Positions 7,558-31,583 of a DNA stretch of 58,743 nucleotides are shown here, one piece after another. The notes under the pieces were generated by a model, which had not been told where the DNA came from, did not search any database, and worked only from the letters and a program-made list of their open reading frames with translations. Within the stretch, counting starts at the first letter, position 1; every line of letters starts with the position of its first letter. Made by a program: the position numbers and the translations under genes. Source of the stretch: Dehalococcoidales bacterium (GTDB taxonomy: Bacteria; Chloroflexota; Dehalococcoidia; Dehalococcoidales; RBG-16-60-22); assembly GCA_050014355.1 (NCBI GenBank), contig JBEKDL010000001.1, forward strand, positions 1 to 58,743, written 5' to 3'.

Positions 7558-7661
7558 GCGACGTGGCAATCTCTATCATCGAAATAAATCCATGTTAGAG
7601 ATTGCCGCGCCTCCCGATTCGCCAGGGAACAAAGAGGCTCATCGGGATGGCTCGCAATGAC
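7539..7661. mobile_element. MITE-like palindromic element (gene-less relative of the GIY-YIG element at 14749-15149)
   Basis: The left arm gtcattgcgaggagcataagcgacgtggcaatctct and the right arm agagattgccgcg...ggctcgcaatgac are inverted. The terminal GTCATTGCGAG core matches the repeats flanking the GIY-YIG gene. Confidence 0.55.
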
Positions 7662-9195: not shown

Positions 9196-9752
9196 AGACT
9201 ATTCTTATCCTCGGCGGGGCGCGCAGCGGCAAGAGCCGGCTGGCCGTGGAAATGGCGCAGAAGCGGGGCGGTGAAGTCCTCTTCGTGGCAACCGCCGAAG
9301 CCCGCGACGATGAGATGAAGCGCCGCGTCAAAGCGCACCGTCAGACACGGCCTCCAGAATGGAAGACACTGGAAGCCACGCTGCATATCGGCCGGCAGAT
9401 AAAACAAAATATCGGCCGGGCGCGGACAGTGCTAATCGATTGTATCACCCTGCTGGTGAATAACATCTTCGAGAAGTACGGCGAAAACGCCGGACCCTCG
9501 AAGCTGGAAAGGGCGGTCGAGGCAGAGATTAAAGCGCTGCTGGACTGCGCCGCTCAATCCGATGCCCTTTTTATCATCGTCAGCAACGAGGTGGGGCTGG
9601 GCATTATCCCCGCCGATGGCGTCAGTCGTCTTTACCGCGATTTGCTCGGCCGGGCCAACCAGATGCTCGCCGCCCGGGCCGACGAGGTCTATCTGCTGGT
9701 GGCCGGCCTGCCGGTGGCCCTAAAAAAGTCCAATCCCGACATTGACAGCTAA
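9192..9752 (+). CDS. cobU: Adenosylcobinamide kinase / adenosylcobinamide-phosphate guanylyltransferase
   Basis: ILGGARSGKS P-loop, about 186 aa. TTG start overlaps the cobQ stop (TTGA) and lies 7 nt after GGAGG. Confidence 0.9.
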   Translation: MKTILILGGARSGKSRLAVEMAQKRGGEVLFVATAEARDDEMKRRVKAHRQTRPPEWKTLEATLHIGRQIKQNIGRARTVLIDCITLLVNNIFEKYGENAGPSKLERAVEAEIKALLDCAAQSDALFIIVSNEVGLGIIPADGVSRLYRDLLGRANQMLAARADEVYLLVAGLPVALKKSNPDIDS

Positions 9753-18421: not shown

Positions 18422-18877
18422 CTATGTCGTTGCCCAGGCAGTCCTGGCAAGGACCTTGTTCTTTTGTTCGCCAGACTTGTTCACGAGCCAGGAGCTGGAC
18501 TGTATTTTGCCCCCGCCCACGCCGTAGACAATCTTGCAGCCGATTCTCTGACAGATTTCTTTTTCGGTTGGCGGCATATTGCCCTCGGTGCGGTCGCCGC
18601 CCTTGGCGAAAATGTCCGGACTGTAACGTTCGAGAGATTGAGTGCTGGACAGGTCCGGGTCGATGTTTGGCAATACCATATCCACGCCGCTTATTCTCAT
18701 CAGGATTTCTTTTCTCTCATGGTAAGGCATGAAGACATAGCCCTTTTTCATTATCAACTGGTCGTCCCGCGTCAATATGATCATCACGCTATCGCCGAGT
18801 TCCCTGGCCTCCTGGATGCTGCGCAGGTGGCCGACGTGTATGGGGTCGAAACCGCCGCTTACCGCTACGATAATCAT
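18422..18877 (-). CDS. Cytidylyltransferase-family nucleotidyltransferase (TagD/RfaE-domain-II/RibL-like)
   Basis: VSGGFDPIHVGH (HxGH motif), about 150 aa. Overlaps the upstream GT2 gene by 4 nt. Confidence 0.75.
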   Translation of the reverse strand: MIIVAVSGGFDPIHVGHLRSIQEARELGDSVMIILTRDDQLIMKKGYVFMPYHERKEILMRISGVDMVLPNIDPDLSSTQSLERYSPDIFAKGGDRTEGNMPPTEKEICQRIGCKIVYGVGGGKIQSSSWLVNKSGEQKNKVLARTAWATT

Positions 18878-20121
18878 GAGCCGACTCCAGTTAATTGTTT
18901 GTTTTCCTTCTCCACCGACGCGTCACCACCCCCGCTTTTATCAGTCACTTCAAAGACCTTTGGGGGGTTGATAAACGATAAGATTGTTGGCACTGTACAG
19001 ATAAACTCGATGACAGGGGATAATACGAACAGGCCAGCATGATACCCTATTTTTTTGATCCAGCTGCTCGGCGTATATTTCAGCTGCCAGTAAAGGCCAA
19101 GCTGATAACGGGCAAGCCATAGTACTCCGGCCAATGATACTCCTCCCAGGGAAAGGAAACCCACCGTTGTTGGTATGAGTTCTTTAGGGAATATGTGGTT
19201 GAGTGCGCCTATCGGGATAAACATAGTTAAGATGAATCCTAGGAACCAGGCGGTATAACTGTATAAGCGGTACCATAGGTCGTTAAAGCGGATATGTTTC
19301 AGCATTAAGATGCCACCCCAGTACCAGCGTTTCCTTTGCTTGATAGCAGCACCGGCGGTCTTAGGTGGTTTCTCCAGAGTTAAGCCGCCATGCCAGCCGA
19401 ACACCTTGCCACACCGCTTGGAGACTTCATAGGCGAACCGGGTGTCCTCGCTATATTTGACATTTTCGAAATCCCAGCCGATTTTATGTTCTACGTCAGT
19501 GCGTATCAACATATTTGAGCCGTTCATCCAGTAAACACCAGAGGTCTCCAGCTGGCGCTTTACCCAGAAATAGGTCCAGCATCGCTGTGCCTCAACGAAG
19601 AATGTCAGCAGGTTACCATCGTAAGGGAAGACCGTCGGGCCATCAGCCACCGGGTTACCGTTCTTTTTGATGTACTTGAGGATGCTGGGCACTGTTTGCG
19701 CCGTAATTTGAGCGTCTTCATCAAGGTGAAGTGTCCAGACATCGGGTGAGTTCGGCGTAAACTCCAGCGCATAGTTAAGCGCTCTTGCCTTGAACTTGGA
19801 ATGACAAACATAATCTTCAGGTACGATGAGGTGTTCGGCCCCTTCAAGTTCCCCGTCTTTATCCGCGAGGACTTTTATCTCATAATTCGTGAACCCACAT
19901 TTATAGCATGAAGCGATGATAGACTGCACTGATCCGTTCAGCAGGCCGGTAATCTTCCTGGCAGTGATGAGAAATATTATTCTGGGGTGAGGATTGTCCG
20001 GCATCAGGTAATGTTTGGGGATATACGTCTTCCATCCTCTGATGAGATAGTACCAGGAGAGCACCACTGCCGGTGCGATGATTATCCAAATAATTTCATA
20101 AGCTGTCAAATGTAGATGCAT
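18874..20121 (-). CDS. Membrane-integrated family-2 glycosyltransferase (processive-type QxxRW motif)
   Basis: N-terminal TM helix, LDEDAQ (DxD), IKQRKRWYWG (Q-x-x-R-W) and several C-terminal TM helices. Confidence 0.8.
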   Translation of the reverse strand: MHLHLTAYEIIWIIIAPAVVLSWYYLIRGWKTYIPKHYLMPDNPHPRIIFLITARKITGLLNGSVQSIIASCYKCGFTNYEIKVLADKDGELEGAEHLIVPEDYVCHSKFKARALNYALEFTPNSPDVWTLHLDEDAQITAQTVPSILKYIKKNGNPVADGPTVFPYDGNLLTFFVEAQRCWTYFWVKRQLETSGVYWMNGSNMLIRTDVEHKIGWDFENVKYSEDTRFAYEVSKRCGKVFGWHGGLTLEKPPKTAGAAIKQRKRWYWGGILMLKHIRFNDLWYRLYSYTAWFLGFILTMFIPIGALNHIFPKELIPTTVGFLSLGGVSLAGVLWLARYQLGLYWQLKYTPSSWIKKIGYHAGLFVLSPVIEFICTVPTILSFINPPKVFEVTDKSGGGDASVEKENKQLTGVGS

Positions 20122-20149
20122 TTTTTCCTCCTTATTTTTCTAGTTTATC

Positions 20150-20941
20150 TTAAGCTTTCAGAGACTTTTGAGATTGTTCCGGCCGGTGAGCGTTTATCAC
20201 TTCAAGCTCGGTGTTGACTTCTTTTATGGTCTCGAATAGCTTGACAATTAATCCCTTGGAGCGGCACAGGTCCAGGAGCTGGTTGAGGTCCTTGGGCAGG
20301 CATTTGCCGCCGAAAGGCTTACCGAAAAAGGCGGTCCCGTATTCGCTGACCCGCTTATCGTTTTTAACGATGTCGGCAATCTCCTTTGTGTCCAGATTCA
20401 GGACTTTACATATTTTATCTACCTCATTCCAGAATGTAATCAGAGTAACTAAATAGTTATTCAGCACGAGCTTGGCCATTTCGCTGGTGTTCGCTTTGGT
20501 GCGGATAATTTCCGCGCCCAGCGGTTTATAGAGCTCGGCCATAGCGTCGCCGTGCTCTTTACAGCACTCCCCGATAACCACGAACTTCTGGTTCAAAGCG
20601 TCCTCGACGGCCGTTTTCTCGCGGAGAAATTCCGGATTGTGACAGATGTGGACACCGTGTTTCTGCATGGCCGCCTGGGTTGTGCCCGGTGGTACGGTGC
20701 TCTTGATAACGTAGGGATTGTGTACCTTGCTGGTTACCAGATTCTCGATGACATCCGGAACGACCTTTTCAGGGGGGCAGATAAAAGTTAAATCGGCGTT
20801 CTTCACGGGTTTATCCGTTATAGGTATGTCCGTGAAATTCCCCGGTTTGACATCGCAGCCGGTGACCTTGTGCCCCAGCTTCTGCATCACCTTAGCCTGG
20901 GCTTTACCTACCACTCCCATACCTATAATCTGTATGTGCAT
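20150..20941 (-). CDS. UDP-glucose/GDP-mannose dehydrogenase-family protein, short form lacking the C-terminal domain
   Basis: IIGMGVVG Rossmann motif, NPEFLREKTA, and FGGKCLPKD with the catalytic Cys. Only 263 aa. ATG 20941 follows GAGGT. Confidence 0.7.
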   Translation of the reverse strand: MHIQIIGMGVVGKAQAKVMQKLGHKVTGCDVKPGNFTDIPITDKPVKNADLTFICPPEKVVPDVIENLVTSKVHNPYVIKSTVPPGTTQAAMQKHGVHICHNPEFLREKTAVEDALNQKFVVIGECCKEHGDAMAELYKPLGAEIIRTKANTSEMAKLVLNNYLVTLITFWNEVDKICKVLNLDTKEIADIVKNDKRVSEYGTAFFGKPFGGKCLPKDLNQLLDLCRSKGLIVKLFETIKEVNTELEVINAHRPEQSQKSLKA

Positions 20942-21418
20942 TTTTACCTCTCCTTGCTCTAGATTTGGAAGTTTCAAATTTCTTTCATTTATCTTTCGTG
21001 GATTTTTCATACCTTTTGATAATAATTTGCCCGGTAAAGAGCGTCAAGGGGGTAAACCTAACTTATCCTCCCAACTTAGTACTTTATTCCTATTACTTTT
21101 ACGGCCCGGGGATAGTACTAAAACAGTACTAAATGGTTAGCGATATGGCCGGGTCAGGTCAGGTTCCATGTAAATATTTAAGCGTCAGGCCGGTTATTTT
21201 TTGGTATAAAAACGGTTTGAGAAAGGTATGAAATGAAAGTTCTATGAAAAAACTATGCAAGAAGACAAAATATATTTGTTTCTATGGAACATGGTCTCCG
21301 GGCGCGATGAGGGCAGGCAGCTATGTCAGGTGATGACCAGCCAAGGAATTTAAAGGTACTGTTTGTATTTGGTTGCTAGTTGACATCTTTATTGAATAAT
21401 ATTATTAGGAGCGTTAAT

Positions 21419-21586
21419 ATGACAACAGGCACAAAAAAGGACAAATTTTACTTACAAGATTTAGCTGACCTATTTTTGAAAGAAGACCTTGAATTTATTA
21501 CTAAAGTTAAAACCCCTTCTGCTCTAATTGCGCCTGAATTCGTTGATTGTTCTGGGAAATCGTTGCCAATAAAGCCTGAGCACTAG
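21419..21586 (+). CDS. Possible small ORF (55 aa), or merely an antisense transcript
   Basis: AGGAG lies 7 nt before ATG 21419 and TTGACA is at 21380. However, a plausible -10 overlaps the RBS, and the ORF overlaps the convergent gene by 80 nt. Confidence 0.25.
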   Translation: MTTGTKKDKFYLQDLADLFLKEDLEFITKVKTPSALIAPEFVDCSGKSLPIKPEH

Positions 21587-21758
21587 CTAAAAGCCTTCTT
21601 TCTGCATTCGCTTGAACAAAAGCCTCTCTTTCGGAATAACCTCCTTTCATCAATGTCTTTACTTCATTGCTTTGGGATTTCTGTAACCCATCATGGATAG
21701 ATTTAAACTGCTCTTCGAAATAATCAATTAGCCCTTTTTTGGTTAACCCGATTGCCAT
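21507..21758 (-). CDS. Hypothetical helical protein (83 aa)
   Basis: Strong AAGGAG RBS 11 nt upstream of the ATG, with an extended -10 promoter upstream. No family recognised. Confidence 0.5.
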   Translation of the reverse strand: MAIGLTKKGLIDYFEEQFKSIHDGLQKSQSNEVKTLMKGGYSEREAFVQANAERRLLASAQALLATISQNNQRIQAQLEQKGF

Positions 21759-21787
21759 TAGTCACACTCCTTTCCAATTCTGGCAAG

Positions 21788-21816
21788 ATTATAGCACTCT
21801 AGTTGACATATTGAAA
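21788..21816 (-). promoter_or_regulatory. Extended -10 promoter for the 83-aa gene
   Basis: The minus strand reads TTTCAA, a 17-nt spacer, then TGcTATAAT. Confidence 0.5.
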
Positions 21817-21948
21817 TTGTAAAGTCGAAATCTCAAAAACAACCAAAACCAAAGAGAACCAATTTAAAGCTTGCTTGCCTGCCGATAGTCAATATGTCAT
21901 AATGAGTTTAAGTTTTTAGGTAAATCAAACCCACTAGACAATGAGAAA

Positions 21949-24489
21949 ATGAGCTTGAGCAAATCAAAAGTAACCATACTCATCGGGGCCTTAATAGTCC
22001 TCTTCATGGCGCTGTCCCTCGTATTTCGCGTGGCTCTCCCTTATGACTCCGTGTTCACGGGCGGATGGGTCAAGTTCACCAGCAACGACGCTTACTTTCA
22101 TATGCGGCTGGTAGATAACTTGGTACATAATTTTCCTCATCTCACTCACTTTGACCCTTACTTTATCTATCCCGGAGGGGGGACTACCAGCGGGGTGCAT
22201 TTCTTTGACTATCTGCTGGCCATCATTATCTGGATTATCGGGCTGGGTTCACCCACACAGCACACCATAGATGTAGTGGGGGCTTATTTCCCGGCGGTTC
22301 TGGCAGCGCTGACGGTTATCCCCGTTTTCTTCATCGGTAAAGCGCTGTTCAATCGCTGGGTGGGGGTGATGGCAGCTTTTCTGACGGCACTACTGCCCGG
22401 CGAATTTTTAGGGCGCTCGATTCTCGCCTTTACCGACAACCATGTCGCCGAGACTTTTTTCAGCACGCTAGCCGTTCTCTTTTTTATTCTGGCGGTGAAG
22501 CCCGCGGGAGACGGACCGCCGATAACCCTGGAAAACTTGCTTCAACGCGACTGGAAAACCGTTAAAAAAACCCTGTTGTATAGCGCACTGGCCGGTCTTT
22601 TCCTAGGGATTTACCTTAGCACCTGGATGGGAGCGCTGCTCTTCGTTTTCATTATCAGCGTCTTCTTTGTCCTTCAGTTTATCATTAACCATTTCAGGCA
22701 TAAACCCAACGACCATCTGGGCATTATCGGTTTTGTCACTTTCCTGATAGCCGATATCATCTTCCTGCCGCAGTCCCCGGACCGGAATTTCACCCTGGTG
22801 ATGGTTGCCGCACTGTTTATCCCTCCTGTCCTTGCCGTCATATCGCGATTGATGTCAAACTGGAAAGTGAATACTATCTATTACCCGTTGTCCCTCATCG
22901 CGGTCGGCGGTGTGTTACTCGGCGTAATGCGCGGTATCGACTCTTCCGCAATAACCACGATGTGGCATAATTTCCTTTACATCTTTGCGCCGGGAGGGGG
23001 GTCTTCCGCCGCCACCACGATGGAGATGCAGCCTTTCCTTTCACCGCAGGGTAGCTTTACTACCATCGTTGCCTGGGGCAATTTTACGACTAGCTTCTTC
23101 ATGATCTCACCAAATTTACCAATTGCTAAGCTTTGGTGGTTTCCCGGTTTTGCTATACCTCCGATTGCGATTGCGATATGGCTTTGGACTAAACAACGTA
23201 TCAATAAATACCATACACTAATCCTGTTTTCATTTGGAATAATGTTGATAGCCGCTGTAGTTTTTTGGTTCATCACTCCGGCGGGTTGGAAGTTTAAATT
23301 CCCAGGCTTTGGAATTATTTCATTACTTATACTAATCGTGTTGTCCATCAAACAGCGCGGCCAAAAGGAAATACAGGTCTTCTTCGTCATCTGGACATTA
23401 ATCATACTCATCGCCACGCTGGTGCAGCGCCGCTTCGCTTATTACCTCGTGGTGAATATGGCGGTGCTCTCCGCCTATATTTCCTGGGAGATAATCTGGT
23501 ATGCTGGGCTGCGGAGACTAACCGAAAAGGCGGATAAAGACGCCGCAGCTGAAAAAGCGGAGACCAAAGCTAAAGCCAAGAAGAAACGCCGGCAAAGCCA
23601 GGGCGTATCCGTCCATTACGTCTATACCGTAGTGGCCATAATCGTGGTGTTTTTCTGCGTTGACTTTTTTAATATTTCCCAAGCGAATAATGTAGCCTCA
23701 ACTGCACCTTATGCTCCCACGGACGGCTGGGAGCAGGCCCTGACCTGGATGAAGACCAATACCCCGGAACCCCTGGGCGACCCGGGTGCCTATTATAAGC
23801 TGTTTAATACCGAATATAAATATCCGGCTTCAGCCTACGGCGTGACGGCCTGGTGGGACTATGGCTACTGGATTTCGCGGATAGCCGAGCGCCTCCCCTC
23901 GACAAATCCCTCTCAAGCTTCCGACCCTATCAAAAAGGTCGCCACTCTCTTTTTGTCCCAGAATACGACTTCGGCCGATAAAATAATGGCCGACCTCGGC
24001 TCGTCCTATATTATCGCGGACAATTCCCTGATTGCTGCCAAGATATGGGCCGTAGTCGATTGGGCCAGTCAGAGCCAAGATAAATATTTCGGAACCTACT
24101 TTGTACCTAAAAACGGCTCTTACCAGTCAGTCCAGCTTTACAACCCTGATTTCTATCGCACGCTCATCGTCAGGCTATATAGCTTCGACGGCAAAGCGGT
24201 GCCCGATGGAAAACCCGTGGTCGTTACTTATACCACGCAAACGAGAAACGGGACTGTTTATAAGCTGGTGACCGCCGCCGACCAGTACCCCACCTATCAA
24301 GCGGCGCTTAACTATATAGCCAGTCAGAAGTCGGGAAATTACGATATCGTCGGCACCAACCCGTTCATCAGTCCCGTGCCGCTGGACGCTATTCAGGACT
24401 TTAACATAGTTTACAGTTCTCCGTATACCGACTCGTTTTCCGGGAACGTCACCCTGCCGGATATCAAGGTGTTCGAACACGTTAAATAA
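21949..24489 (+). CDS. Oligosaccharyltransferase of the STT3/AglB/PglB family
   Basis: The N-terminal region is polytopic, with NDAYFHMR and AFTDNHVAE acidic loop motifs. The diagnostic WWDYGYWI lies at nt 23851-23874, followed by IIADNSLIAAKIW and a soluble C-terminal domain of about 200 aa. Confidence 0.85.
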   Translation: MSLSKSKVTILIGALIVLFMALSLVFRVALPYDSVFTGGWVKFTSNDAYFHMRLVDNLVHNFPHLTHFDPYFIYPGGGTTSGVHFFDYLLAIIIWIIGLGSPTQHTIDVVGAYFPAVLAALTVIPVFFIGKALFNRWVGVMAAFLTALLPGEFLGRSILAFTDNHVAETFFSTLAVLFFILAVKPAGDGPPITLENLLQRDWKTVKKTLLYSALAGLFLGIYLSTWMGALLFVFIISVFFVLQFIINHFRHKPNDHLGIIGFVTFLIADIIFLPQSPDRNFTLVMVAALFIPPVLAVISRLMSNWKVNTIYYPLSLIAVGGVLLGVMRGIDSSAITTMWHNFLYIFAPGGGSSAATTMEMQPFLSPQGSFTTIVAWGNFTTSFFMISPNLPIAKLWWFPGFAIPPIAIAIWLWTKQRINKYHTLILFSFGIMLIAAVVFWFITPAGWKFKFPGFGIISLLILIVLSIKQRGQKEIQVFFVIWTLIILIATLVQRRFAYYLVVNMAVLSAYISWEIIWYAGLRRLTEKADKDAAAEKAETKAKAKKKRRQSQGVSVHYVYTVVAIIVVFFCVDFFNISQANNVASTAPYAPTDGWEQALTWMKTNTPEPLGDPGAYYKLFNTEYKYPASAYGVTAWWDYGYWISRIAERLPSTNPSQASDPIKKVATLFLSQNTTSADKIMADLGSSYIIADNSLIAAKIWAVVDWASQSQDKYFGTYFVPKNGSYQSVQLYNPDFYRTLIVRLYSFDGKAVPDGKPVVVTYTTQTRNGTVYKLVTAADQYPTYQAALNYIASQKSGNYDIVGTNPFISPVPLDAIQDFNIVYSSPYTDSFSGNVTLPDIKVFEHVK

Positions 24490-24517: not shown

Positions 24518-25762
24518 ATGAGGATGAATATCCTGTTTGTCCACGAAGTAGACTGGCTGAACAAAGTCGTATTTGATATTCATTCCCTCGCTGATGGGCT
24601 TTCACTGCGCGGCCACCATGTGTTCGCCATAGATTATGAGGACACCTGGAAACAAAAGAACCTCTTTGATTTAGGCAGTCTGAAAACGAGCCAGTTTGAT
24701 GGTATCGCCCGTTCGCTCCCCGGGGCATCTGTGACCTTGATACGCCCGGGGTTTATTAAAATTCCCGCCTTGAGCCGCTTATCAGCTGCTTTTACACACT
24801 ACAAGGAAATCCATAAGACTATCAGGGAAAAGAACATCGAAGTTATTATCCTCTACTCGGTGCCCACCAACGGTCTGCAGACGGTTAGTCTGGCCAGGAA
24901 ATTTAAAATACCGGTGATATTCAGGTCCATCGATATACTTAATATGATGGTGCGCTACCCCGCCCTGCGCCGGATAACTAAATTTCTGGAGAAAAAGGTC
25001 TATTCCAGCGTGGACCTGGTCCTGCCCAATACACCCCAATATCTTAAATATGTCTCCGGCATGGGTGTCCCTGAATCCAGAATCAGACTGCTCCCTTTCC
25101 CGGTAGATACCAGCTTATTCCGTCCCTCGGTCGACTCTTCCGAGGTCCGCCGGAAATGGGACCTCGAAGGAGAAGAGCAGATAATCGTCTTTATCGGCAC
25201 GCTGTTCGAGTTCAGCGGATTGGATGAGTTTCTGTGCCGCTTCCCGGGCGTGCTGAAGGAAGTACCGCAGGCCAGGCTGCTGATTGTCGGAGACGGCCCT
25301 CAACGCTCCAAACTGGAGAGAATCATTGCCGAAATGGGCTTGAAAAACCGGGTAATAATCACCGGCTTTCAGCCTTACCGGACCATGCCGGAGTATATCA
25401 ACCTGGCGGCGGTATGTATTAACACTTTTCGCGTCACCGGCGCCATTATGGATACTTTCCCGTCTAAGATAGTACAGTACGCCGCCTGCGGCAAGGCCAC
25501 GGTAGCCACCCCCTTGCGCGGTATCACTTCCCTGCTGCCCGGCGAATCTCACGGAGTGGTCTATGCCGCAGATGCGGCCGGCATCGTCGGCGAAGTGATT
25601 TCACTTTTAAAGTCAGCCGAAAGGCGCCAGCAGATTGGGCAAAACGGTCTAAACTATGTCAGGGACAATTTCAACTACGAAAAGATTTCCGGGGAGCTGG
25701 AAACAATCCTTGAGGAGGCGATTAGAGAAAAACATCATGAAACAACTTCCCGCCGAAATTAA
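24518..25762 (+). CDS. GT4-family (GT-B) glycosyltransferase
   Basis: N-terminal sugar-transferase domain and a C-terminal block VFIGTL...LLIVGDGP...FPSKIVQYAACGKATVA (EX7E-like region). Confidence 0.8.
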   Translation: MRMNILFVHEVDWLNKVVFDIHSLADGLSLRGHHVFAIDYEDTWKQKNLFDLGSLKTSQFDGIARSLPGASVTLIRPGFIKIPALSRLSAAFTHYKEIHKTIREKNIEVIILYSVPTNGLQTVSLARKFKIPVIFRSIDILNMMVRYPALRRITKFLEKKVYSSVDLVLPNTPQYLKYVSGMGVPESRIRLLPFPVDTSLFRPSVDSSEVRRKWDLEGEEQIIVFIGTLFEFSGLDEFLCRFPGVLKEVPQARLLIVGDGPQRSKLERIIAEMGLKNRVIITGFQPYRTMPEYINLAAVCINTFRVTGAIMDTFPSKIVQYAACGKATVATPLRGITSLLPGESHGVVYAADAAGIVGEVISLLKSAERRQQIGQNGLNYVRDNFNYEKISGELETILEEAIREKHHETTSRRN

Positions 25763-26693
25763 AGGCAAGAAAGTCCTCGTTACCGGCGGCGCTGGTTTTA
25801 TCGGTTCGCATATCGTGGATAGCCTGTCGCCGGAAAACCAAGTGGTTGTCCTGGATAACCTGTTCACCGGTTCGCCCGCCAACCTGGCCGGGAGCAAAGA
25901 CAGGATTAAATTTATCAATGGAGACGTGCGTGACAAACAGTTGGTCAAAGATATCATCGCAGATGGGATTGAGTTCGTCTTTCACCTGGCGGCCCACGCA
26001 AACGTAATCAGGTCGATTGCCGACCCCTACACGGACATGGACATCAATATCCGTGGCACGCTCAATGTTCTGGAAGCCTGCCGTTCCTCCAGAGTAAAGC
26101 GGCTGGTCTATGTCAGCTCGGCGGCGGTCTACGGCGAAGCCAAACACCTCCCCATCGATGAAGAACATCCCCTTAATCCGGAGTCGCCTTACGCCGTCAG
26201 CAAGATGACCGCGGAAAAATACTGCCTCGTATATCATAAGGTGTTCGGTGTTCCCGCTGCCGTGGTCAGGTGCTTCAATATCTACGGCCCGCGGCAGAAC
26301 ACCGGCGCATACGCCAACGCCATTTCCATTTTTCTCGCTAAAGTCAAAAAAGACGAGCCCATCACTATCTACGGTGACGGCGAGCAGACACGGGACTTCG
26401 TCTTCATCGGCGACGCGGTTGCCGGCATTCTCTTGGCCGCCACCCGTCCGGCCTCGGTGGGCGGGGTCTTTAATATCGCCAACGGCGCGGCCACCAGTAT
26501 CAACCGGCTGGTTGAAATCATCCATAAAACCACGGGGCGGCAAGTCCAGGTCATCCATGCTGCCGCCAAGGCCGGGGAAATCAGGCACAGCTTCGCCAGT
26601 ATTGACAGGGCGGTGAAAGCGCTCGGCTACCGCCCTGGCACCGACCTTGAAAACGGCATTGCAGCGACATGGAGGGGATTAAATAAGGGTTGA
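25737..26693 (+). CDS. NAD-dependent nucleotide-sugar epimerase/dehydratase (extended SDR)
   Basis: VLVTGGAGFIGSH and YAVSKMTAE (YxxxK). ATG 25737 overlaps the end of the preceding GT4 gene. Confidence 0.85.
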   Translation: MKQLPAEIKGKKVLVTGGAGFIGSHIVDSLSPENQVVVLDNLFTGSPANLAGSKDRIKFINGDVRDKQLVKDIIADGIEFVFHLAAHANVIRSIADPYTDMDINIRGTLNVLEACRSSRVKRLVYVSSAAVYGEAKHLPIDEEHPLNPESPYAVSKMTAEKYCLVYHKVFGVPAAVVRCFNIYGPRQNTGAYANAISIFLAKVKKDEPITIYGDGEQTRDFVFIGDAVAGILLAATRPASVGGVFNIANGAATSINRLVEIIHKTTGRQVQVIHAAAKAGEIRHSFASIDRAVKALGYRPGTDLENGIAATWRGLNKG

Positions 26694-26755: not shown

Positions 26756-27886
26756 CTATTGATTGCCACGCTGTAATAAAACCGCTTGATACACCTCATT
26801 CATCTGTTCGGCTATTTTAGCCCAGCTATACTGCTGCGCCAGGTTTTTTCTCTGGTCTCGGAATAGTTCTTTTTTATCGTCTTTTATTATATTAAGCATG
26901 GCCTCGGCCAGTTTTTCCTCGTCATAAGGAACACTCACGCCATATTCATTGCGGACAATATCCTTCAACCCGCATCTATCGGTAACGACGACCGGCGTGC
27001 CGCAGGCCAGCGCTTCCAATACCGTTATCCCGAATATTTCATATTGTGAAGGCAGCACATATACGTCGGCGTCGGTATATAGTCTCAATTTATCCAAGCC
27101 GTAAACCGCCCCGGTGTAAAGTGTCCTGCCGGCAATACCCAGCTTTTCCGTCAAGGCCGTAAACTTATTCTTGTACCCATCGTCATATCCGGCAATGACG
27201 AGAGTAATTTGCGGCTCGCCCAGCCGGGCAAAAGCTCTGGCCAGCAGTTCAAGGCCTTTTATCTCGTGTATCCTGCCCAGGTAGAGCACGATTTTTTGGT
27301 CAGGCTTGATATTAAACTGTTTTCTGAATTCGCCTCTCGGCGGCAGGTTTCTGAACTCCTCCTGGTCAATGCCGTTGGGCACGGTGACTATTTTTTCCCG
27401 GATGCTGCCCATGTCCTGGTATTGTTTCACCTCTGTGTCCGACACGGCAATTAGCCTGTCGGCGCGGCGCATGATGTTTTTGTTCCACGCTATATCAGTC
27501 ATCTGCTTAAACACCTTCTTGGGCCGTGCAATAAGCATCGAGCCGTGGGCCTGCATCACGTAAGGAATGTCAGCCCTGCGGGCAAGCCAAGAAACGCACA
27601 CGTTGAGGAATGTCCTGAAGTTGTGCAGATGAATTATGTCATAGTCCTTAACATCAGCCGTTAACAGACCGGGTGTGATTCTATAACCATAGATGTTGAC
27701 CAGAGTCTTAAACTTGACCAGTTCTACCCCTTCAGGCGGTCCCTGGTCTTTAGCATCCCAGTCGCTGGCATAGATAGTAACGCTGTTTCCCTGTTTGGCC
27801 TGCTCCCTCGCCAGATGAAACGGTACTTTGGCCGAGCCCCCGGCTCTTGCCTGTGAAATGAGGTCTATAACGTGCAGAATTTTCAA
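26756..27886 (-). CDS. GT4-family glycosyltransferase
   Basis: MKILHVID..., GRIHEIKG, and LPSQYEIFGITVLEALACGTPVVVTD (EX7E motif). TTG start. Confidence 0.8.
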   Translation of the reverse strand: MKILHVIDLISQARAGGSAKVPFHLAREQAKQGNSVTIYASDWDAKDQGPPEGVELVKFKTLVNIYGYRITPGLLTADVKDYDIIHLHNFRTFLNVCVSWLARRADIPYVMQAHGSMLIARPKKVFKQMTDIAWNKNIMRRADRLIAVSDTEVKQYQDMGSIREKIVTVPNGIDQEEFRNLPPRGEFRKQFNIKPDQKIVLYLGRIHEIKGLELLARAFARLGEPQITLVIAGYDDGYKNKFTALTEKLGIAGRTLYTGAVYGLDKLRLYTDADVYVLPSQYEIFGITVLEALACGTPVVVTDRCGLKDIVRNEYGVSVPYDEEKLAEAMLNIIKDDKKELFRDQRKNLAQQYSWAKIAEQMNEVYQAVLLQRGNQ

Positions 27887-28096: not shown

Positions 28097-29044
28097 ATGA
28101 AGGTTCTTGTTGTCGGAGGTGCCGGCTATGTCGGCGGTGCTATCACCGATTTGCTGATGGAAAGCGAGTATCAGGCCCGCGTCTATGATGCGCTGCTATA
28201 TGAAGAATGCTACCGCAAGCCCGTAGACTTTGTATATGGAGACGTACGCGACCTCGATAGATTGCAGCCGCAGCTGGACTGGGCTGATGTCACGGTGTGG
28301 CTGGCCGCCCTGGTCGGCGACCCGGCCTGCGCCCTTAATCCGGATGTAAGCATAGCCATCAACCAGGAATCGGTCAAGTGGCTGGCCGGGCACTTTGACG
28401 GCCGTATTGTATTCCTATCTACCTGCTCGGTATACGGTGCCAGGGACGGAGTCCTGGACGAATCATCACCGACCAACCCGCTCTCCGTTTACGCCGCCAC
28501 CAAACTCGAAGCGGAACGCAGCCTGGCAGATAAAAATGCAATTATCTTCCGTCTCGGCACGCTATTCGGCGTCGGCGACGTTTTTTCCCGTATCCGCCTC
28601 GACCTGGTGGTCAATACCCTGGCCGTCAGAGCGCATAACCTTGGCAAAATCTCCGTTTTTGGCGGCGACCAGTTCCGTCCCCTCTTACACGTGCGCGATG
28701 CGGCCCAGACTGTCGTCGATAACCTGGCCACCGCGCATACTGGAATTTTCAACCTGCATAAGCAAAATGTACGTATTATCGACCTGGCTTACCAGGTACG
28801 TAACCACTACCCGGACCTCATCATCGAGCATGTCAACCGGACTTTCGAGGACACGCGCAACTACCGAGTCAGCAGCGATAAGGCTAAAAAAGTGCTGGGG
28901 TTCAATCCAACGCGCTCCATTGATGAAGGCATAGAGGAAATTAAGTTTCTCCTTGACTGCGGGCGGTTGAAGGACACCGATAACCCGCGCTATACCAATC
29001 AGAAGTTCCTCTCGATGTTTAACACTCACCTCCTGGGTTATTAA
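28097..29044 (+). CDS. NAD-dependent epimerase/dehydratase (extended SDR)
   Basis: VLVVGGAGYVGG Rossmann motif and YAATKLEAE (YxxxK). Confidence 0.8.
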   Translation: MKVLVVGGAGYVGGAITDLLMESEYQARVYDALLYEECYRKPVDFVYGDVRDLDRLQPQLDWADVTVWLAALVGDPACALNPDVSIAINQESVKWLAGHFDGRIVFLSTCSVYGARDGVLDESSPTNPLSVYAATKLEAERSLADKNAIIFRLGTLFGVGDVFSRIRLDLVVNTLAVRAHNLGKISVFGGDQFRPLLHVRDAAQTVVDNLATAHTGIFNLHKQNVRIIDLAYQVRNHYPDLIIEHVNRTFEDTRNYRVSSDKAKKVLGFNPTRSIDEGIEEIKFLLDCGRLKDTDNPRYTNQKFLSMFNTHLLGY

Positions 29045-29045
29045 A

Positions 29046-29510
29046 ATGGCAGTGCAGGATAAAAAAGAAAAGGATAGCATCCGGTTGATAGAAGGCGGGC
29101 TGGCGGTCGATGACCGCGGCGCGGTAGGCTTCGTTAACGACTTCGATTTCAACGGCGTGAAACGTTTTTATATGGTGACTAACCACCGGGCCGGTTTTGT
29201 GCGCGCCTGGCACGCGCACCGCCGTGAAGCGAAATACATCACCGTCCTCCGGGGTTCTGCCGTCGTCGGCGCGGTTAAAATAGATAACTGGGAAAACCCC
29301 TCCCGTAACAGCACGGTAAGCCGCTATGTGCTTACCGCCCAAAAACCATCCGTCCTCTACATTCCGGCGGGACATGCCAACGGCCTCATGTCGCTTACCG
29401 ATGACACTATCATCGTTGTTTTCTCTACCGCCACCGTCGAGGAATCACGCAATGACGATTTCCGCTATGATGCCCGCTACTGGGACATCTGGCAGGTTAT
29501 CGAGCGATAA
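29046..29510 (+). CDS. RmlC-like cupin (sugar 3,5-epimerase / ketoisomerase-related)
   Basis: DDRGAV...VRAWHAHRREAKYITVLRGS...LYIPAGHANG is typical of small cupin sugar epimerase/isomerase proteins. Confidence 0.6.
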   Translation: MAVQDKKEKDSIRLIEGGLAVDDRGAVGFVNDFDFNGVKRFYMVTNHRAGFVRAWHAHRREAKYITVLRGSAVVGAVKIDNWENPSRNSTVSRYVLTAQKPSVLYIPAGHANGLMSLTDDTIIVVFSTATVEESRNDDFRYDARYWDIWQVIER

Positions 29511-29532
29511 ACCTATACCAGCGTAGAAAGAA

Positions 29533-30456
29533 ATGACCAGGAAAGTGATTGTCCTCGGCAGTTCGGGCATGCTGGGGTCGATGGTCGTTGACGACCTCTC
29601 CCGGGACCCCGAAATTAAACTCGCGGCTACGGTGCGTACCGCCGCGCTGAAAGCGAAATGCGCCCGTAAAATCCCCAACGTCAGCTGGCTCATTTTTGAC
29701 GCCAATGCACCCGACGCAGAGAAGGCTTTAAAAGTCATCGATGGATACGACTGGGTGATAAACGCCATCGGTATCACCAAACCGCTGGTCCATGATGACA
29801 ACGCCTTCGAGGTGGAGATGGCGATTAAAATAAACTCACTGCTGCCCCACCAGCTCGCCCGCCAAGCCGAGTCGAGCGGAGCCAGGGTGATACAAATTGC
29901 CTCCGACTGCGTTTTTTCCGGGAAAAAAGGGAAATACGTGGAGAGTGGCGAGTTCGACCCGCTCGATGTCTACGGCAAGACCAAGAGCCTGGGCGAAGTA
30001 CCGTCCCCCGGCGTTTATCACCTCCGCTGCTCCATCATTGGCCCGGAGCCGAAAGAGCACAAGTTCCTCCTCGACTGGTTCCTGGGCCAACCGAAGAACG
30101 CCAGGGTAAACGGTTTCATAAATCACCGCTGGAACGGGATTGCCACGCTGCATTTTTCCCGGCTGTGCCATGGTATCATCGCCAGTGATTTAAAGTTGAC
30201 GCATGTCCAGCATATCGTTCCCACCGGAGAAGTCACCAAATGCGAGTTGCTTGAGCAATTTGCCAGATATTTTCATCGTGAAGATGTTACCATTACCCCC
30301 GTTAAGACCCCGGTGGTGGTTGACCGGACTCTCAAGACGACTGATGAAGCATTGAATCTCGCCATATGGTCTGCGGCCGGCTATCGCCAGCCACCATCCG
30401 TGCCGGAGATGGTCGCCGAGCTGGCCAGCTTCGACTACCGGCTGAACGGGTTGTAA
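29533..30456 (+). CDS. RmlD-like NAD(P)H-dependent 4-keto-sugar reductase (SDR)
   Basis: VIVLGSSGMLGS Rossmann motif and YGKTKSLGE (YxxxK). Length and order resemble dTDP-4-dehydrorhamnose reductase-type proteins. Confidence 0.65.
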   Translation: MTRKVIVLGSSGMLGSMVVDDLSRDPEIKLAATVRTAALKAKCARKIPNVSWLIFDANAPDAEKALKVIDGYDWVINAIGITKPLVHDDNAFEVEMAIKINSLLPHQLARQAESSGARVIQIASDCVFSGKKGKYVESGEFDPLDVYGKTKSLGEVPSPGVYHLRCSIIGPEPKEHKFLLDWFLGQPKNARVNGFINHRWNGIATLHFSRLCHGIIASDLKLTHVQHIVPTGEVTKCELLEQFARYFHREDVTITPVKTPVVVDRTLKTTDEALNLAIWSAAGYRQPPSVPEMVAELASFDYRLNGL

Positions 30457-30482
30457 AAAATACCACCAGAAGAGGTGCGTCC

Positions 30483-31583
30483 GTGAAAGTAATGACTATC
30501 CTGGGCACTCGCCCGGAAATTATCCGCCTTAGCCTTATTATTCCCAAGCTGGACAAATACTGTGACCACGTTTTAGTCCATACCGGGCAAAACTACGACT
30601 TCAAACTCGATAAAATCTTTTTCCGGCAGCTGGGCGTGCGCGAGCCCGATTATTATCTGGGTGCCAAAGGCACTTTCGGCGAGCAAATCGGGACGATACT
30701 GGCCGGGAGCGAAAAAATAATGGCGACCGAAAAACCGGACCGTTTCCTGGTGCTGGGCGATACGAATAGCAGCCTGGCCGCGATTATGGCCAAGCGGCTC
30801 GCGATTCCCGTCTATCATATGGAGGCCGGCAACCGCTGCTATGACGACCGGGTGCCCGAAGAGGTCAACCGGCGCATTATCGACCATTCGAGCGACATCC
30901 TCCTGCCTTACACCGAACGCAGCCGCGCTAACCTGCTGCGGGAGGGCATCCCCGGCGAGCGCATCTACGTCACGGGCAACCCGATATTTGAAGTTATCCA
31001 GCACTACAAAAAACAGATTGGCCGGTCGAAAATATTGGCCGAACTCGGTCTGGAAGCCGGGAGGTATTTCCTGGTAACGATGCACCGGGCGGAGAATGTC
31101 GACCGTGAAAGCAGGCTAAAAGACCTGCTCGTAAGCCTGGACAGGATTAACAAGCAGTACAAGGTGCCGGTTATCTGCAGCCTGCACCCCAGGACGAAAA
31201 ATCGGAAAGAGCAATTCGGCATCAAAGTGCTTAATAAAAATATCCGCCTGCTGGAGCCATTCGGCTTTTTCGACTTCATTGCGCTGGAAAAAAGTGCGCT
31301 CTGCGTGCTTACGGATAGCGGAACAGTTCAGGAAGAGACCTGCATCCTGGGTGTGCCGGCGATTACCATCAGGGATGTGACCGAAAGACCCGAGACCATC
31401 GAAAGCGGCAGCAATATGCTCACCAGTGTCATTCCTGACCTGATTTTAAATTCGATAAAAGTCGTGCTGAACGATAAAAGTAGCTGGAAACCCCCGGTTG
31501 AATACCTGGATACCAACGTTTCGTCGAAAGTAATCAGGATTGTCTTGGGATACCGGTCCAGCCGGCAGTTAGAAAGCGCCTGA
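30483..31583 (+). CDS. wecB: UDP-N-acetylglucosamine 2-epimerase family (non-hydrolysing; FnlC/Cap5G-like paralogue)
   Basis: ILGTRPEIIRL, HTGQNYD, GDTNS, HMEAGNRCYDDRVPEE and VTGNPI. GTG 30483 lies 7 nt after AGAGGTG; an alternative ATG is at 30492. Confidence 0.85.
   Translation: MKVMTILGTRPEIIRLSLIIPKLDKYCDHVLVHTGQNYDFKLDKIFFRQLGVREPDYYLGAKGTFGEQIGTILAGSEKIMATEKPDRFLVLGDTNSSLAAIMAKRLAIPVYHMEAGNRCYDDRVPEEVNRRIIDHSSDILLPYTERSRANLLREGIPGERIYVTGNPIFEVIQHYKKQIGRSKILAELGLEAGRYFLVTMHRAENVDRESRLKDLLVSLDRINKQYKVPVICSLHPRTKNRKEQFGIKVLNKNIRLLEPFGFFDFIALEKSALCVLTDSGTVQEETCILGVPAITIRDVTERPETIESGSNMLTSVIPDLILNSIKVVLNDKSSWKPPVEYLDTNVSSKVIRIVLGYRSSRQLESA

Follow-up and report, generated by a model that had tools for sequence, protein, structure and literature searches.

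The window analysed here, a stretch of 58,743 nucleotides of Dehalococcoidales DNA, carries a gene that, on the evidence of sequence comparison and a predicted structure, is a genuine oligosaccharyltransferase (OST) of the STT3/AglB family (CAZy GT66), of archaeal type and resembling the "long" AglB-L of A. fulgidus (AfAglB-L). The protein belongs to this family, has intact catalytic and sequon-binding residues and the OST fold, is encoded in a bacterium, and keeps both its chromosomal position and a GT4 glycosyltransferase partner. The reading favoured here, with a probability of roughly three in four, is that it acts as a single-subunit archaeal-type N-oligosaccharyltransferase of a Dehalococcoidia-type chromosome, probably carrying out en-bloc N-glycosylation and probably of archaeal descent.

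Family, fold and motifs

The open reading frame begins at an ATG and continues uninterrupted for 846 codons; a JGI gene call on the same contig starts at M20 (giving 827 aa), while the longer start is favoured by the N-terminal consensus of 45 homologues. When the positions of the frame, of WWDYGYWI and of the other motifs quoted in a first-pass annotation of the window were recomputed, they agreed exactly (Table 1).

Searches with family models place the protein clearly. Pfam STT3 (PF02516) matches residues 24-336 with 90.6 bits (cutoff 24.5; E 2e-25), and an AglB_core-like Pfam model gives 68.2 bits (E 1e-18). NCBIfam TIGR04154 ([quoted passage not shown]), which models a euryarchaeal AglB subfamily, gives 552.8 bits (E 1.5e-165), so that the curated cutoff of 450 is exceeded even though the host is a Chloroflexota-type bacterium rather than the euryarchaeon of the model's description; control scores were 834.9 for AfAglB-L, 801.4 for Ferroglobus and 116-144 for AglBs from TACK and Asgard archaea. 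The top match by sequence in the PDB is AfAglB-L (phmmer E 3e-51), no PglB chain appearing among the phmmer PDB matches at E <= 1, and the PglB equivalog model NF050801 (ProtGlycPglB) likewise gives no match at E <= 1. The C-terminal domain PF18079, present in 120/120 Archaeoglobi relatives, was not detected by Pfam search.

The AF2 model (pLDDT 78.9, pTM 0.78) shows a multi-TM GT-C module followed by a mixed alpha/beta C-terminal domain. Foldseek ranks AfAglB-L first (E 1.7e-29, TM 0.65), followed by STT3 (about 2e-18 to 1e-13), PglB (2.5e-11 to 4e-10) and other GT-C enzymes, and every one of the first 19 matches is an AglB, STT3 or PglB. Both the Pfam search and the structural comparison thus lead to the STT3/AglB/PglB family that the first-pass annotation had proposed.

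Residue conservation was assessed over 45 homologues (47-78% identity), using alignment to AfAglB-L (3waj/5gmy) to relate positions. D47 falls at the position of D47 in AfAglB-L, a catalytic residue that binds metal, and is kept in 45/45 homologues. D163 and H165 correspond to D161/H163 of AfAglB-L, the D-x-H form of the second DXD motif; D163 and E168 are each found in 44/45 homologues, while H165 is found in 33/45 and replaced by Pro in 11/45, which counts against the N-OST reading. In external loop 5, which has low pLDDT as expected for a flexible loop, E359 aligns with E360 of AfAglB-L, and T357 and E359 are unchanged in all 45. WWDYG at 635-639 matches the WWDYG of AfAglB-L (550-554) at every alignment column (W635, W636, D637 and G639 in 45/45), and the pattern WWD[YFW]G occurs just once in a six-frame translation of the whole window. 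Finally, D691-x7-K698 is in register with D611-x7-K618, both residues being present in 45/45, so that the motif is of DK type, not MI. Taken more widely, the family comprises more than 1,000 homologues in which length and motifs are conserved.

Table 1 Positions of features in the window (nucleotides, with residue numbers for motifs of the OST).
Feature	Position	Strand	Evidence or comment
B12 uptake/salvage operon (BtuF/C/D-like, CbiB, CobD-like, CobT-like, CobS, CobQ, CobU)	410-9752	+	Pfam; host marker
Cobalamin riboswitch	428-569	+	Rfam RF00174, 43.5 bits (gathering score 31.5), E 1.1e-7; host-domain marker, outside the glycosylation system
Divergent upstream block, three genes	18422-21010	-	
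Cytidylyl/adenylyl-transferase-like gene	18422-18877	-	
Membrane GT2, about 4 TM	18874-20121	-	
Short NDP-sugar dehydrogenase-like gene	20150-21010	-	
AglB-type OST gene (N-terminal multi-helix membrane domain, C-terminal globular domain)	21949-24489	+	ORF, Pfam, TIGR04154, AfAglB-L top PDB match by sequence and fold
NDAYFHMR, acidic motif of first external loop	22084-22107 (aa 46-53)	+	Alignment to 3waj/5gmy
AFTDNHVAE, second acidic motif	22426-22452 (aa 160-168)	+	Alignment to AfAglB-L
TTME, TIXE-like motif in external loop 5	23014-23025 (aa 356-359)	+	Alignment to AfAglB-L (ALTIAE vs ATTME)
WWDYGYWI, WWDYG sequon-binding/catalytic motif	23851-23874 (aa 635-642)	+	Alignment to AfAglB-L
IIADNSLIAAKIW, DK-motif segment	24010-24048 (aa 688-700)	+	Alignment to AfAglB-L
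GT4 glycosyltransferase, conserved partner	24518-25762	+	Pfam Glycos_transf_1, Glyco_transf_4; 28 bp downstream of OST
NAD-dependent sugar 4,6-dehydratase/epimerase	25737-26693	+	Pfam Epimerase, GDP_Man_Dehyd
Second GT4 glycosyltransferase	26756-27886	-	
Sugar-modification block, four genes	28097-31583	+	Pfam
SDR epimerase	28097-29044	+	Pfam
Cupin/RmlC-like gene	29046-29510	+	Pfam
RmlD-like reductase	29533-30456	+	Pfam
WecB, non-hydrolysing UDP-GlcNAc 2-epimerase	30492-31583	+	TIGR00236 wecB, 279.5 bits (cutoff 210)
Second glycan-assembly cluster	43067-57178	+	Candidate source of lipid-linked glycan; putative link to OST
MOP-family flippase, second glycan cluster	49476-50786	+	

The host of the contig

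The first-pass annotation took the window to be bacterial, possibly of the Dehalococcoidia type, and the evidence supports this. The cobalamin riboswitch that it reported is found by Rfam above the gathering score, and is accompanied by the BtuFCD/CobSQU operon; archaea are not known to use CobU, having CobY instead. In ten further loci, homologues of this B12 operon (40-77% identity) are found no more than 10 kb upstream of the OST, and this synteny, seen in many independent Dehalococcoidia MAGs, supports a bacterial host. Among the best 80 species-representative genome matches to the OST, 59 are from Chloroflexota, 17 from other bacteria and only four from archaea, these last being TACK and Asgard lineages at a far greater distance (E 1e-11 to 1e-13). 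The Chloroflexota relatives include contigs of 1.56, 1.99 and 2.31 Mb, and a complete Phycisphaerales chromosome (3.6 Mb) also carries one; relatives in Phycisphaerales, Planctomycetaceae and Vicinamibacteria genomes likewise exceed the TIGR04154 cutoff.

Neighbouring genes

Immediately downstream of the OST lies a GT4 glycosyltransferase, orthologues of which (57-65% identity) adjoin the OST in six other loci and in two more besides (L082 and L083). This partner is therefore kept in at least eight other loci, which makes the arrangement a conserved one. In a count of neighbours, the GT4 occurs within 5 kb of the OST in 11 loci and adjacent to it (<300 bp) in six, while the most frequent neighbour family is the sugar dehydratase/epimerase, found in 22 loci. 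The representative of the latter in the window (the gene following the GT4) has NCBIfam matches to LegB, RmlB and GalE, all below cutoff.

The second glycan-assembly cluster comprises WecB, a UDP-ManNAc-dehydrogenase-like gene, a GT4, an AsnB-type amidotransferase, methyltransferases, a MOP flippase, a B12-radical SAM enzyme and another GT4; within it, at 50-54 kb, GC content drops to 0.40-0.42. In placing the OST amid glycosyltransferase, flippase and nucleotide-sugar genes, the first-pass annotation was right as regards the glycosyltransferases and nucleotide-sugar genes that flank it, but the sole flippase-like gene is 25 kb away, in this second cluster. No initiating phosphoglycosyl-transferase (PF00953, PF02397) was found by Pfam or NCBIfam in the window, which counts against the N-glycosylation reading. 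An unannotated 10-TM neighbour family, considered as a second OST, gave an hhalign probability of 9.7% and no PDB sequence match.

The sigma70 promoters that had also been reported find no statistical support, 11 sites being detected against 7.2 +/- 3.1 in shuffled sequences. One sigma-70 candidate near the OST reads TTGCCT-17-CATAAT (21875-21903), in a scan that overall was not above shuffled expectation.

Comparison with characterised systems

Of the characterised enzymes AfAglB-L (O29867; PDB 3WAJ, 3WAK, 5GMY, 7E9S) is the nearest, sharing the same set of motifs (D47, D-x-H, a TIXE-type Glu, WWDYG and the DK D-x7-K), an equal overall length and a C-terminal globular domain. However, identity in the structural alignment is only about 22%, the TIGR04154 scores differ (835 against 553 bits), and, unlike the Archaeoglobi AglBs, the present protein has a bacterial host, no detected PF18079 and a Lys/Ala-rich, cytoplasmic insert at about residues 527-553. 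Nor was the archaeosortase/PGF-CTERM partner of the TIGR04154 subfamily seen near the OST, either in the window or in 83 further loci; such a partnership is defined over entire genomes, and the window covers 58 kb of this one.

PglB of Campylobacter lari and C. jejuni (3RCE, 5OGL, 6GXC), the characterised bacterial N-OST, is likewise a single-subunit STT3-family enzyme with WWDYG, encoded among glycan-assembly genes, but it is much more distant (Foldseek TM 0.44-0.55, at the E-values given above) and has an MI motif where the present protein has DK. PglB requires an extended sequon, D/E-X-N-X-S/T. It represents a separate acquisition from archaea, at least two transfers having been inferred (Lombard 2016). 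The eukaryotic STT3 proteins (yeast and human; 8AGC, 6S7O, 6S7T) share the fold (target-normalised TM about 0.7), the Pfam STT3 domain and WWDYG, with an identity of only 13-15%; they work within a multi-subunit complex and are closer to TACK/Asgard AglB (Lombard 2016).

A further comparison is with the archaellum of Chloroflexota (Nat Microbiol 2025, PMC12488501), also an archaeal surface system found in Dehalococcoidia and Anaerolineae, and apparently derived from the same donors, the Methanotecta, a group that includes Archaeoglobi. It is a different machine; the glycosylation described in that paper is putatively O-linked, and AglB is not mentioned there. In archaea, archaellins are classic substrates of AglB (PMC12488501). 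The sole Chloroflexota archaellum to have been solved shows densities that are putatively O-linked, not N-linked, its source organism lying outside the Dehalococcoidia (PMC12488501).

Origin of the gene

In a neighbour-joining tree of OSTs, built without methanogen and haloarchaeal sequences, the bacterial and Archaeoglobi proteins separate from those of TACK/Asgard archaea in 100/100 bootstraps, and monophyly of the bacterial proteins is recovered in only 65/100. Lombard (2016) found bacterial sequences to fall inside the euryarchaeal AglB clade and inferred at least two transfers of archaeal OST to bacteria. Most likely, to judge from the sequences, the bacterial AglB clade goes back to a euryarchaeal aglB of Methanotecta type that was acquired in ancient times. 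Given that Dehalococcoidia and Anaerolineae received archaellum clusters from Methanotecta (PMC12488501), a shared archaeal origin is plausible.

A broader proposal can be put forward only tentatively, the odds being somewhat against it in its entirety. In this scheme aglB would have passed from Methanotecta-like Euryarchaeota into Dehalococcoidia, into Planctomycetota/Acidobacteriota lineages and into other phyla, possibly in the same wave as the archaellum, and would there support an archaeal-style general N-glycosylation of envelope proteins, with S-layer-like proteins, lipoproteins and archaellins as substrates and polyprenyl carriers of bacterial type. Such a system would be independent of PglB and found far more widely in bacteria; the J-domain fusions and the unannotated neighbours that resemble GT-C enzymes would then be accessories of particular lineages.

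Proposed function

By homology, the membrane domain would bind a polyprenyl-phosphate-linked glycan together with a divalent metal through D47, D163/H165 and E359, while the C-terminal domain would hold the +2 Ser/Thr of an Asn-X-Ser/Thr sequon using WWDYG (635-639) and the DK motif (D691/K698), and the glycan would be transferred en bloc to the Asn amide at the outer face of the cytoplasmic membrane. Assembly of the glycan may take place on the cytoplasmic face through the adjacent GT4 and GT2 enzymes, from precursors of UDP-ManNAc(A) type and 6-deoxy-hexose type that neighbouring genes could supply, after which it would be flipped by the MOP flippase, or in relatives by an ABC-2 transporter. 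The lipid carrier is presumed to be a bacterial polyprenol, archaeal dolichol being excluded unless the bacterium makes it. The acceptors would presumably belong to the envelope, with S-layer-like proteins, lipoproteins and surface filaments as examples; N-glycosylation of envelope proteins, as suggested in the first-pass annotation, is treated here as a working hypothesis.

Attempts to find likely acceptors gave little. Among predicted exported proteins of the window, N-X-S/T sequons number 1 (3.0 expected) in the SBP, 1 (2.1) in GH12 and 0 (1.9) in BtuF, and across the Chloroflexota loci the ratios of observed to expected were 0.83 for exported, 0.92 for cytoplasmic and 1.15 for membrane proteins, with no enrichment in the exported class; given a crude classifier and a small sample, these figures are uninformative either way. 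No substrate of PGF-CTERM/archaeosortase type lies near any OST among 1,286 ORFs (the 58-kb window plus 83 loci), and no archaellin-like gene or N-terminus was found in the same set. The sole hit of the sorting-signal scan was a PEP-CTERM protein adjoining the OST in an Acidobacteriales locus.

Alternative explanations

It might be asked whether the protein could be some other GT-C enzyme (ArnT, PMT, or an ALG-like lipid or O-mannosyl transferase) with a chance WWDYG, given that in all GT-C enzymes the N-terminal part is a multi-TM module whose first loop is acidic. The probability of this is negligible: no PMT/ArnT family of Pfam (PF02366, PF13231) or NCBIfam matches it, Foldseek gives 4.8e-3 for Pmt4, 1.5e-3 for AftA and 1.7e-2 for ALG12, with ArnT unlisted, against 1e-29 for AglB, and WWDYG, the DK motif and TIXE are all in register with AfAglB-L, so that Pfam, NCBIfam, Foldseek and motif alignment together rule out an ArnT/PMT identity. 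It is also very improbable that the contig is archaeal or mis-binned and the gene an ordinary archaeal AglB. The protein does pass a model made for Euryarchaeota, its best solved structure is archaeal, and the window yielded neither rRNA nor tRNA nor any ribosomal-protein marker, but the riboswitch on the same contig, the syntenic B12 operon, the bacterial relatives on Mb-scale contigs and chromosome, the remoteness of the TACK/Asgard matches and the low identity to Archaeoglobi AglB-L effectively refute an archaeal contig. Both of these readings had been named in the first-pass annotation as alternatives that would overturn it. Improbable too, if a little less so, is a decaying remnant of horizontal transfer (a pseudogene or an unexpressed gene). 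Local GC is 0.50, against 0.56-0.59 in the B12 operon, the 940-bp upstream spacer is AT-rich, and the promoter scan around the OST yielded nothing significant; against this stand the unbroken frame, the conservation of length and motifs in the many homologues, and the retention of position and GT4 partner across genomes.

More weight attaches to another reading, itself still unlikely, in which the protein is a true AglB homologue but has changed its role in bacteria, whether to hydrolysis of the lipid-linked oligosaccharide (LLO) to free glycans, to a non-protein acceptor or non-canonical site, or to one or two dedicated substrates. The lack of sequon enrichment in exported proteins and of PGF-CTERM/archaeosortase-type substrates would fit such a shift, as would the O-type densities of the solved archaellum (PMC12488501), the loss of PF18079 and the variability of H165. 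However, the sequon-binding residues (WWDYG, the DK-motif Lys and the TIXE Glu) do not vary among the 45 homologues, down to 47% identity; this would be hard to explain had the enzyme ceased to act on N-X-S/T peptides, and even an enzyme with few substrates would be carrying out N-glycosylation. En-bloc N-glycosylation by an archaeal-type OST continues to be the preferred reading.

Significance

To our knowledge, the experimental basis for en-bloc N-glycosylation in bacteria is limited to PglB, in Campylobacterota and in a few organisms of Desulfovibrio type. A search of the literature for work on OST, AglB or STT3 in Chloroflexi or Dehalococcoidia gave no relevant paper, and the sequence evidence points to an AglB gene that is widespread but unstudied in Dehalococcoidia-type bacteria, and to an uncharacterised bacterial N-glycosylation pathway. 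Novelty is tempered by the fact that homologues in Chloroflexota MAGs are already auto-annotated as AglB-type OST family members, and by the earlier placement of bacterial sequences in the AglB clade (Lombard 2016). As the enzyme class is well understood, the advance would lie in distribution, evolution and envelope biology rather than in mechanism. If active, such enzymes would offer glyco-engineers single-subunit OSTs native to bacterial membranes with archaeal-type sequon handling. Among the cultivated relatives of these bacteria are some that have S-layers and no peptidoglycan; if the OST is active, it would constitute a second major archaeal surface system in Chloroflexota beside the archaellum, and abundant, mostly uncultured subsurface bacteria would normally have N-glycosylated envelopes.

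Family assignment and fold

The first-pass annotation had read the gene as an STT3/AglB-family oligosaccharyltransferase (OST) resident in a bacterium, a reading to which we give a probability of roughly 0.95 and which profile, fold and host all bear out. In Pfam the protein matches PF02516 (STT3; 90.6 bits, residues 24-336) and PF22627 (AglB_core-like; 68.2 bits, residues 593-693), and its sole NCBIfam match is TIGR04154, 'oligosaccharyl transferase, archaeosortase A system-associated', at 552.8 bits (curated cutoff 450 bits); the PglB equivalog model is not matched. Scores against TIGR04154 are 835 bits for Archaeoglobus fulgidus AglB of the 'long' type (AfAglB-L), 801 bits for a Ferroglobus homologue and just 116-144 bits for the AglBs of Nitrososphaeria, Bathyarchaeia and Promethearchaeum, a spread that places the protein in the euryarchaeal AglB-L-type subfamily as opposed to AglB generally. 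AfAglB-L (3WAJ/5GMY) is also the best match among all PDB sequences (E about 3e-51), followed far more weakly by other AglB fragments and human STT3B, with no PglB chain at E <= 1.

An AlphaFold2 model built from a 45-sequence alignment (pLDDT 78.9, pTM 0.78) has low confidence in external loop 5 and in a Lys/Ala-rich cytoplasmic insert. That insert, EKADKDAAAEKAETKAKAKKKRRQSQG (aa 527-553, window 23527-23607), lies between the final two TM helices and is modelled, at low confidence, as a long helix; a basic stretch is kept at this position in the consensus of the bacterial clade, and the AfAglB-L version is shorter.

Weighing the alternatives

Two other identities had to be weighed: that the protein is an ArnT- or PMT-like transferase, or that the contig is archaeal and the gene an ordinary AglB. 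As regards the former, Pmt4 does appear in the Foldseek search against the PDB, but at E 4.8e-3, behind DPY19 (3e-7) and AftA (1.5e-3) and very far behind AfAglB-L, which ranks first (E 1.7e-29, TM 0.65) ahead of yeast and human STT3 (2e-18 to 1e-13) and PglB (2.5e-11 to 4e-10); ArnT is not among the matches, and no PMT or ArnT family is matched in Pfam, so that this identity is refuted.

The archaeal alternative could appeal to the affinities of the protein itself, but the four archaea among the best 80 relatives reach no better than E 1e-11 to 1e-13. It is ruled out by what surrounds the gene and by where its relatives occur. The cobalamin riboswitch claimed earlier is matched in Rfam at window 428-569, scoring 43.5 bits where the gathering score is 31.5, and downstream of it lie genes for a BtuF/BtuC/BtuD-like transporter, CbiB, CobS, CobQ and CobU, the last being a bacterial enzyme in place of which archaea use CobY. 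An Opp-type ABC transporter, a SpoU methylase, a split transketolase and a pyrogallol-hydroxytransferase-like Mo enzyme are similarly bacterial in flavour. In ten Dehalococcoidia loci the 10 kb upstream of the OST contain homologues of the window's B12 genes (40-77% identity); one of these loci, L069, has CobQ (77%), CobU (66%) and the SpoU methylase (66%) there. With each GTDB species represented by a single genome, a scan finds at least 494 genomes that encode an OST relative; the best 80 comprise 59 Chloroflexota (nearly all labelled Dehalococcoidia, Dehalococcoidales or Dehalococcoidaceae), 17 other bacteria, including Phycisphaerae, Planctomycetes, Vicinamibacteria, Bryobacterales and Acidobacteriales as well as MAGs labelled Myxococcales, Clostridiales, Chlorobiaceae and delta proteobacterium, and the four archaea. 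Mis-binning cannot explain this distribution, since several bacterial matches sit on contigs as long as 1.56, 1.99 and 2.31 Mb and one lies in a complete Phycisphaerales chromosome of 3.6 Mb. The Dehalococcoidia-type host proposed at the outset is thereby upheld.

Reading frame and catalytic residues

The 846-aa ORF and every motif quoted for it were recovered, each once, where they had been placed, and a six-frame translation of the whole window contains no second WWD[YFW]G. The window corresponds to contig Ga0427939_0000527 (74,450 bp) of JGI metagenome 3300038425, on which the JGI gene call starts 19 codons further in (827 aa); the N-terminal consensus of the 45 homologues favours the upstream ATG. 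No clear Shine-Dalgarno sequence precedes this ATG. The sole ORF in the upstream spacer (83 aa, minus strand, 21507-21758) has no family match, and the spacer holds a sigma-70-like candidate, TTGCCT-17-CATAAT with extended TG, at 21875-21903. The sigma70 promoters cited as a bacterial trait lack statistical support, promoter-like sites around the OST being no commoner than expected.

Residue correspondences were taken from a HMMER alignment to AfAglB-L, and conservation was counted over 45 homologues of 47-78% identity. In the AfAglB-L and PglB structures the acidic residues and the His serve metal binding and activation of the Asn amide, and WWDYG together with the DK Lys forms the Ser/Thr pocket. 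The DK/MI-like segment reported after WWDYG proves to be a DK motif with the D-x7-K spacing of AfAglB-L. That the peptide-binding residues are strictly conserved speaks for a substrate that is still an N-X-S/T peptide.

Features of the OST, its window and related loci (L, OST-bearing loci from relatives' genomes; P, closest OST homologues)
Feature	Position or locus	Strand	Remarks
OST gene, 846 aa	21949-24489	+	one uninterrupted ORF
NDAYFHMR	aa 46-53	+	position recomputed
AFTDNHVAE	aa 160-168	+	position recomputed
WWDYGYWI	aa 635-642, nt 23851-23874	+	position recomputed
IIADNSLIAAKIW (D691...K698 segment)	aa 688-700	+	position recomputed
D47	AfAglB-L D47		45/45
D163 / H165	AfAglB-L D161 / H163		44/45 / 33/45 (Pro in 11)
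TTME 356-359	AfAglB-L TIAE, last residue E360		T357 and E359 45/45
WWDYG 635-639	AfAglB-L 550-554		W635, W636, D637, G639 45/45; Y638 43/45
D691...K698	AfAglB-L DK motif D611...K618		both 45/45
OST upstream spacer, 940 bp	21011-21948		AT-rich, GC about 0.42 (base composition)
GT4 glycosyltransferase	starts 28 bp past OST stop	+	coordinates
NAD-dependent sugar epimerase/dehydratase	22 loci		OST neighbour (ORF clustering)
ABC ATPases	19 loci		OST neighbour (ORF clustering)
GT4	11 loci		<=5 kb of OST, adjacent in 6 (ORF clustering)
NDP-sugar dehydrogenase	9 loci		OST neighbour (ORF clustering)
UDP-GlcNAc 2-epimerase	8 loci		OST neighbour (ORF clustering)
Nucleotidyl-transferase	7 loci		OST neighbour (ORF clustering)
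GT2	6 loci		OST neighbour (ORF clustering)
DnaJ-OST fusions	P0023, P0028, P0031, P0033, P0034, P0044, P0046, P0047, P0057, P0062, P0070, P0086, P0097, P0104, P0106
DnaJ-OST fusion, example	L009 10001-12811
10-TM family	L003 2557-4023; L007 4570-6015; L009 12845-14299; L045 330-1820; L069 4710-6155
285-290 aa, 4-5 TM family	L004 12627-13484; L006 3608-4477; L015 12709-13581; L008 5805-6668

Gene neighbourhood and predicted glycan

Orthologues of the GT4 that follows the OST (57-65% identity) adjoin it in L007, L008, L010, L016, L038, L045 and L082/L083, and an ABC-2 transporter comes after the OST-GT4 pair in the 2.31 Mb relative; neighbour frequencies come from clustering all ORFs of the OST loci. 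Further downstream in the window are a 4,6-dehydratase-like SDR, a second GT4, an SDR/cupin/RmlD-like trio and WecB (279 bits, exceeding the cutoff), and a divergent block upstream encodes a short NDP-sugar dehydrogenase-like protein, a 4-TM GT2 and a cytidylyl-transferase-like protein. The gene had been described as embedded among glycosyltransferase, flippase and nucleotide-sugar genes, which holds except for the flippase: the window's only flippase-like protein, a MOP-family member (49476-50786), lies in a second glycan cluster at 43067-57178. This cluster also contains WecB (417 bits), a UDP-ManNAc-dehydrogenase-like enzyme, two GT4s, an AsnB-type amidotransferase, four SAM methyltransferases and a B12-binding radical SAM enzyme; between 50 and 54 kb its GC content is down to 0.40-0.42, compared with 0.56-0.59 where the window starts, suggesting a variable or horizontally acquired island. 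Going by the family names in the two clusters, the glycan would contain ManNAc or ManNAcA that may be amidated or methylated, as well as a 6-deoxy sugar. Pfam and NCBIfam show no WecA/MraY- or PglC-type initiating transferase in the window.

Several neighbours deserve separate mention. A family of 481-496 aa with about 10 TM helices neighbours the OST in five loci from Chloroflexota and is absent from the window; it has 'HIDDW' in its first loop and a soluble C-terminal domain but matches nothing in Pfam or among PDB sequences, and hhalign aligns it to the OST over the TM1-EL1-TM4 region at just 9.7% probability (E 0.0033). It could represent a GT-C enzyme not yet described. A 285-290 aa family with 4-5 TM helices and no Pfam match immediately follows the OST in three of four loci. 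Within the window, 34094-37498 encodes a molybdopterin oxidoreductase (866 aa, with a pyrogallol-hydroxytransferase-like N-terminal domain) and an adjoining 4Fe-4S subunit with a C-terminal CarboxypepD_reg-like domain; in front of the two lie a URO-D-like (methyltransferase-type) protein and a tandem Lrp/AsnC regulator.

Evolution and distribution

With AfAglB-L residues 16-642 as query (a sequence reconstructed from its alignment to the window protein), the best 120 matches are all Archaeoglobi-type proteins, every one carrying an extra domain, PF18079, which the bacterial proteins lack. A neighbour-joining tree (62 sequences, 742 columns, 100 bootstraps) splits bacteria plus Archaeoglobi from TACK/Asgard AglBs in 100/100 replicates and joins all bacterial sequences into one clade in 65/100; a clade of Chloroflexota alone appears in 33/100. 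Having no methanogens or haloarchaea, the tree cannot show nesting. TIGR04154 is passed by proteins from Phycisphaerales (548 bits), 'Chlorobiaceae' (530), Planctomycetaceae (518), Vicinamibacteria (495) and an unclassified bacterium (465), those of Bryobacterales, Myxococcales, Clostridiales and Acidobacteriales falling below the cutoff at 275-377 bits. In about 15 of the 120 closest homologues an N-terminal DnaJ domain (PF00226) is fused to the OST, the fusion proteins measuring 860-980 aa. We know of no precedent for a cytoplasmic J-domain on an oligosaccharyltransferase; it might couple the enzyme to DnaK-bound secretory substrates.

A literature search found nothing pairing Dehalococcoid* with oligosaccharyl*, nor AglB/STT3 with Chloroflexi in a relevant way, and Lombard 2016, in which bacterial sequences fall within the euryarchaeal clade of AglB, does not name Chloroflexi. 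Complete archaellum clusters have been transferred from Methanotecta to Dehalococcoidia and Anaerolineae (Nature Microbiology 2025, PMC12488501); the same paper states that archaeal archaella are N-glycosylated, describes putative O-glycosylation of the Litorilinea filament and nowhere mentions AglB. Since archaellum and OST apparently share a donor lineage, a link between them is plausible; no archaellin-like genes were found in the window or in 83 OST loci. An earlier single-cell study recalls an S-layer in D. mccartyi and terrestrial Chloroflexi strains without peptidoglycan genes.

Candidate acceptors and significance

Asn-linked glycosylation of exported proteins is the probable activity of the enzyme. 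Sequons are not enriched in exported proteins of the window or of the Chloroflexota loci (in the latter observed/expected 0.83, against 0.92 for cytoplasmic proteins), and no PGF-CTERM protein lies near any OST in the window or the OST loci; neither these results nor the promoter count contradict the model, as substrates may be few and encoded elsewhere. A family-5 solute-binding protein (38519-40135) starts like a lipoprotein (LLLIPGCG) and continues with a Thr/Ser/Ala-rich linker, TKTTSTTAAATTTSVS, of a kind often O-glycosylated in other organisms; it has one N-X-S/T sequon against 3.0 expected. In an Acidobacteriales MAG the 3' end of an AglB-like OST gene borders on the gene of a PEP-CTERM (exosortase-sorted) protein (L076 11944-12738, minus strand). 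The window's GT4s and AsnB-like amidotransferase have PEP-CTERM/XrtA-system families as their best NCBIfam matches, below cutoff. This PEP-CTERM association could be a bacterial counterpart of the archaeosortase association.

As judged from its sequence, the protein is an intact archaeal-type (AglB-L-like) N-oligosaccharyltransferase of a Dehalococcoidia-type bacterium and a member of a large bacterial clade: the type of enzyme is known, the host lineage unexpected. The mechanism is that of the textbooks, and relatives already carry the automatic label 'oligosaccharyl transferase, archaeosortase A system-associated [Dehalococcoidales bacterium / Chloroflexota bacterium]' in public pipelines. 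What is at stake is bacterial N-glycosylation beyond PglB and the presence of archaeal surface systems in Chloroflexota, both of them directly testable.
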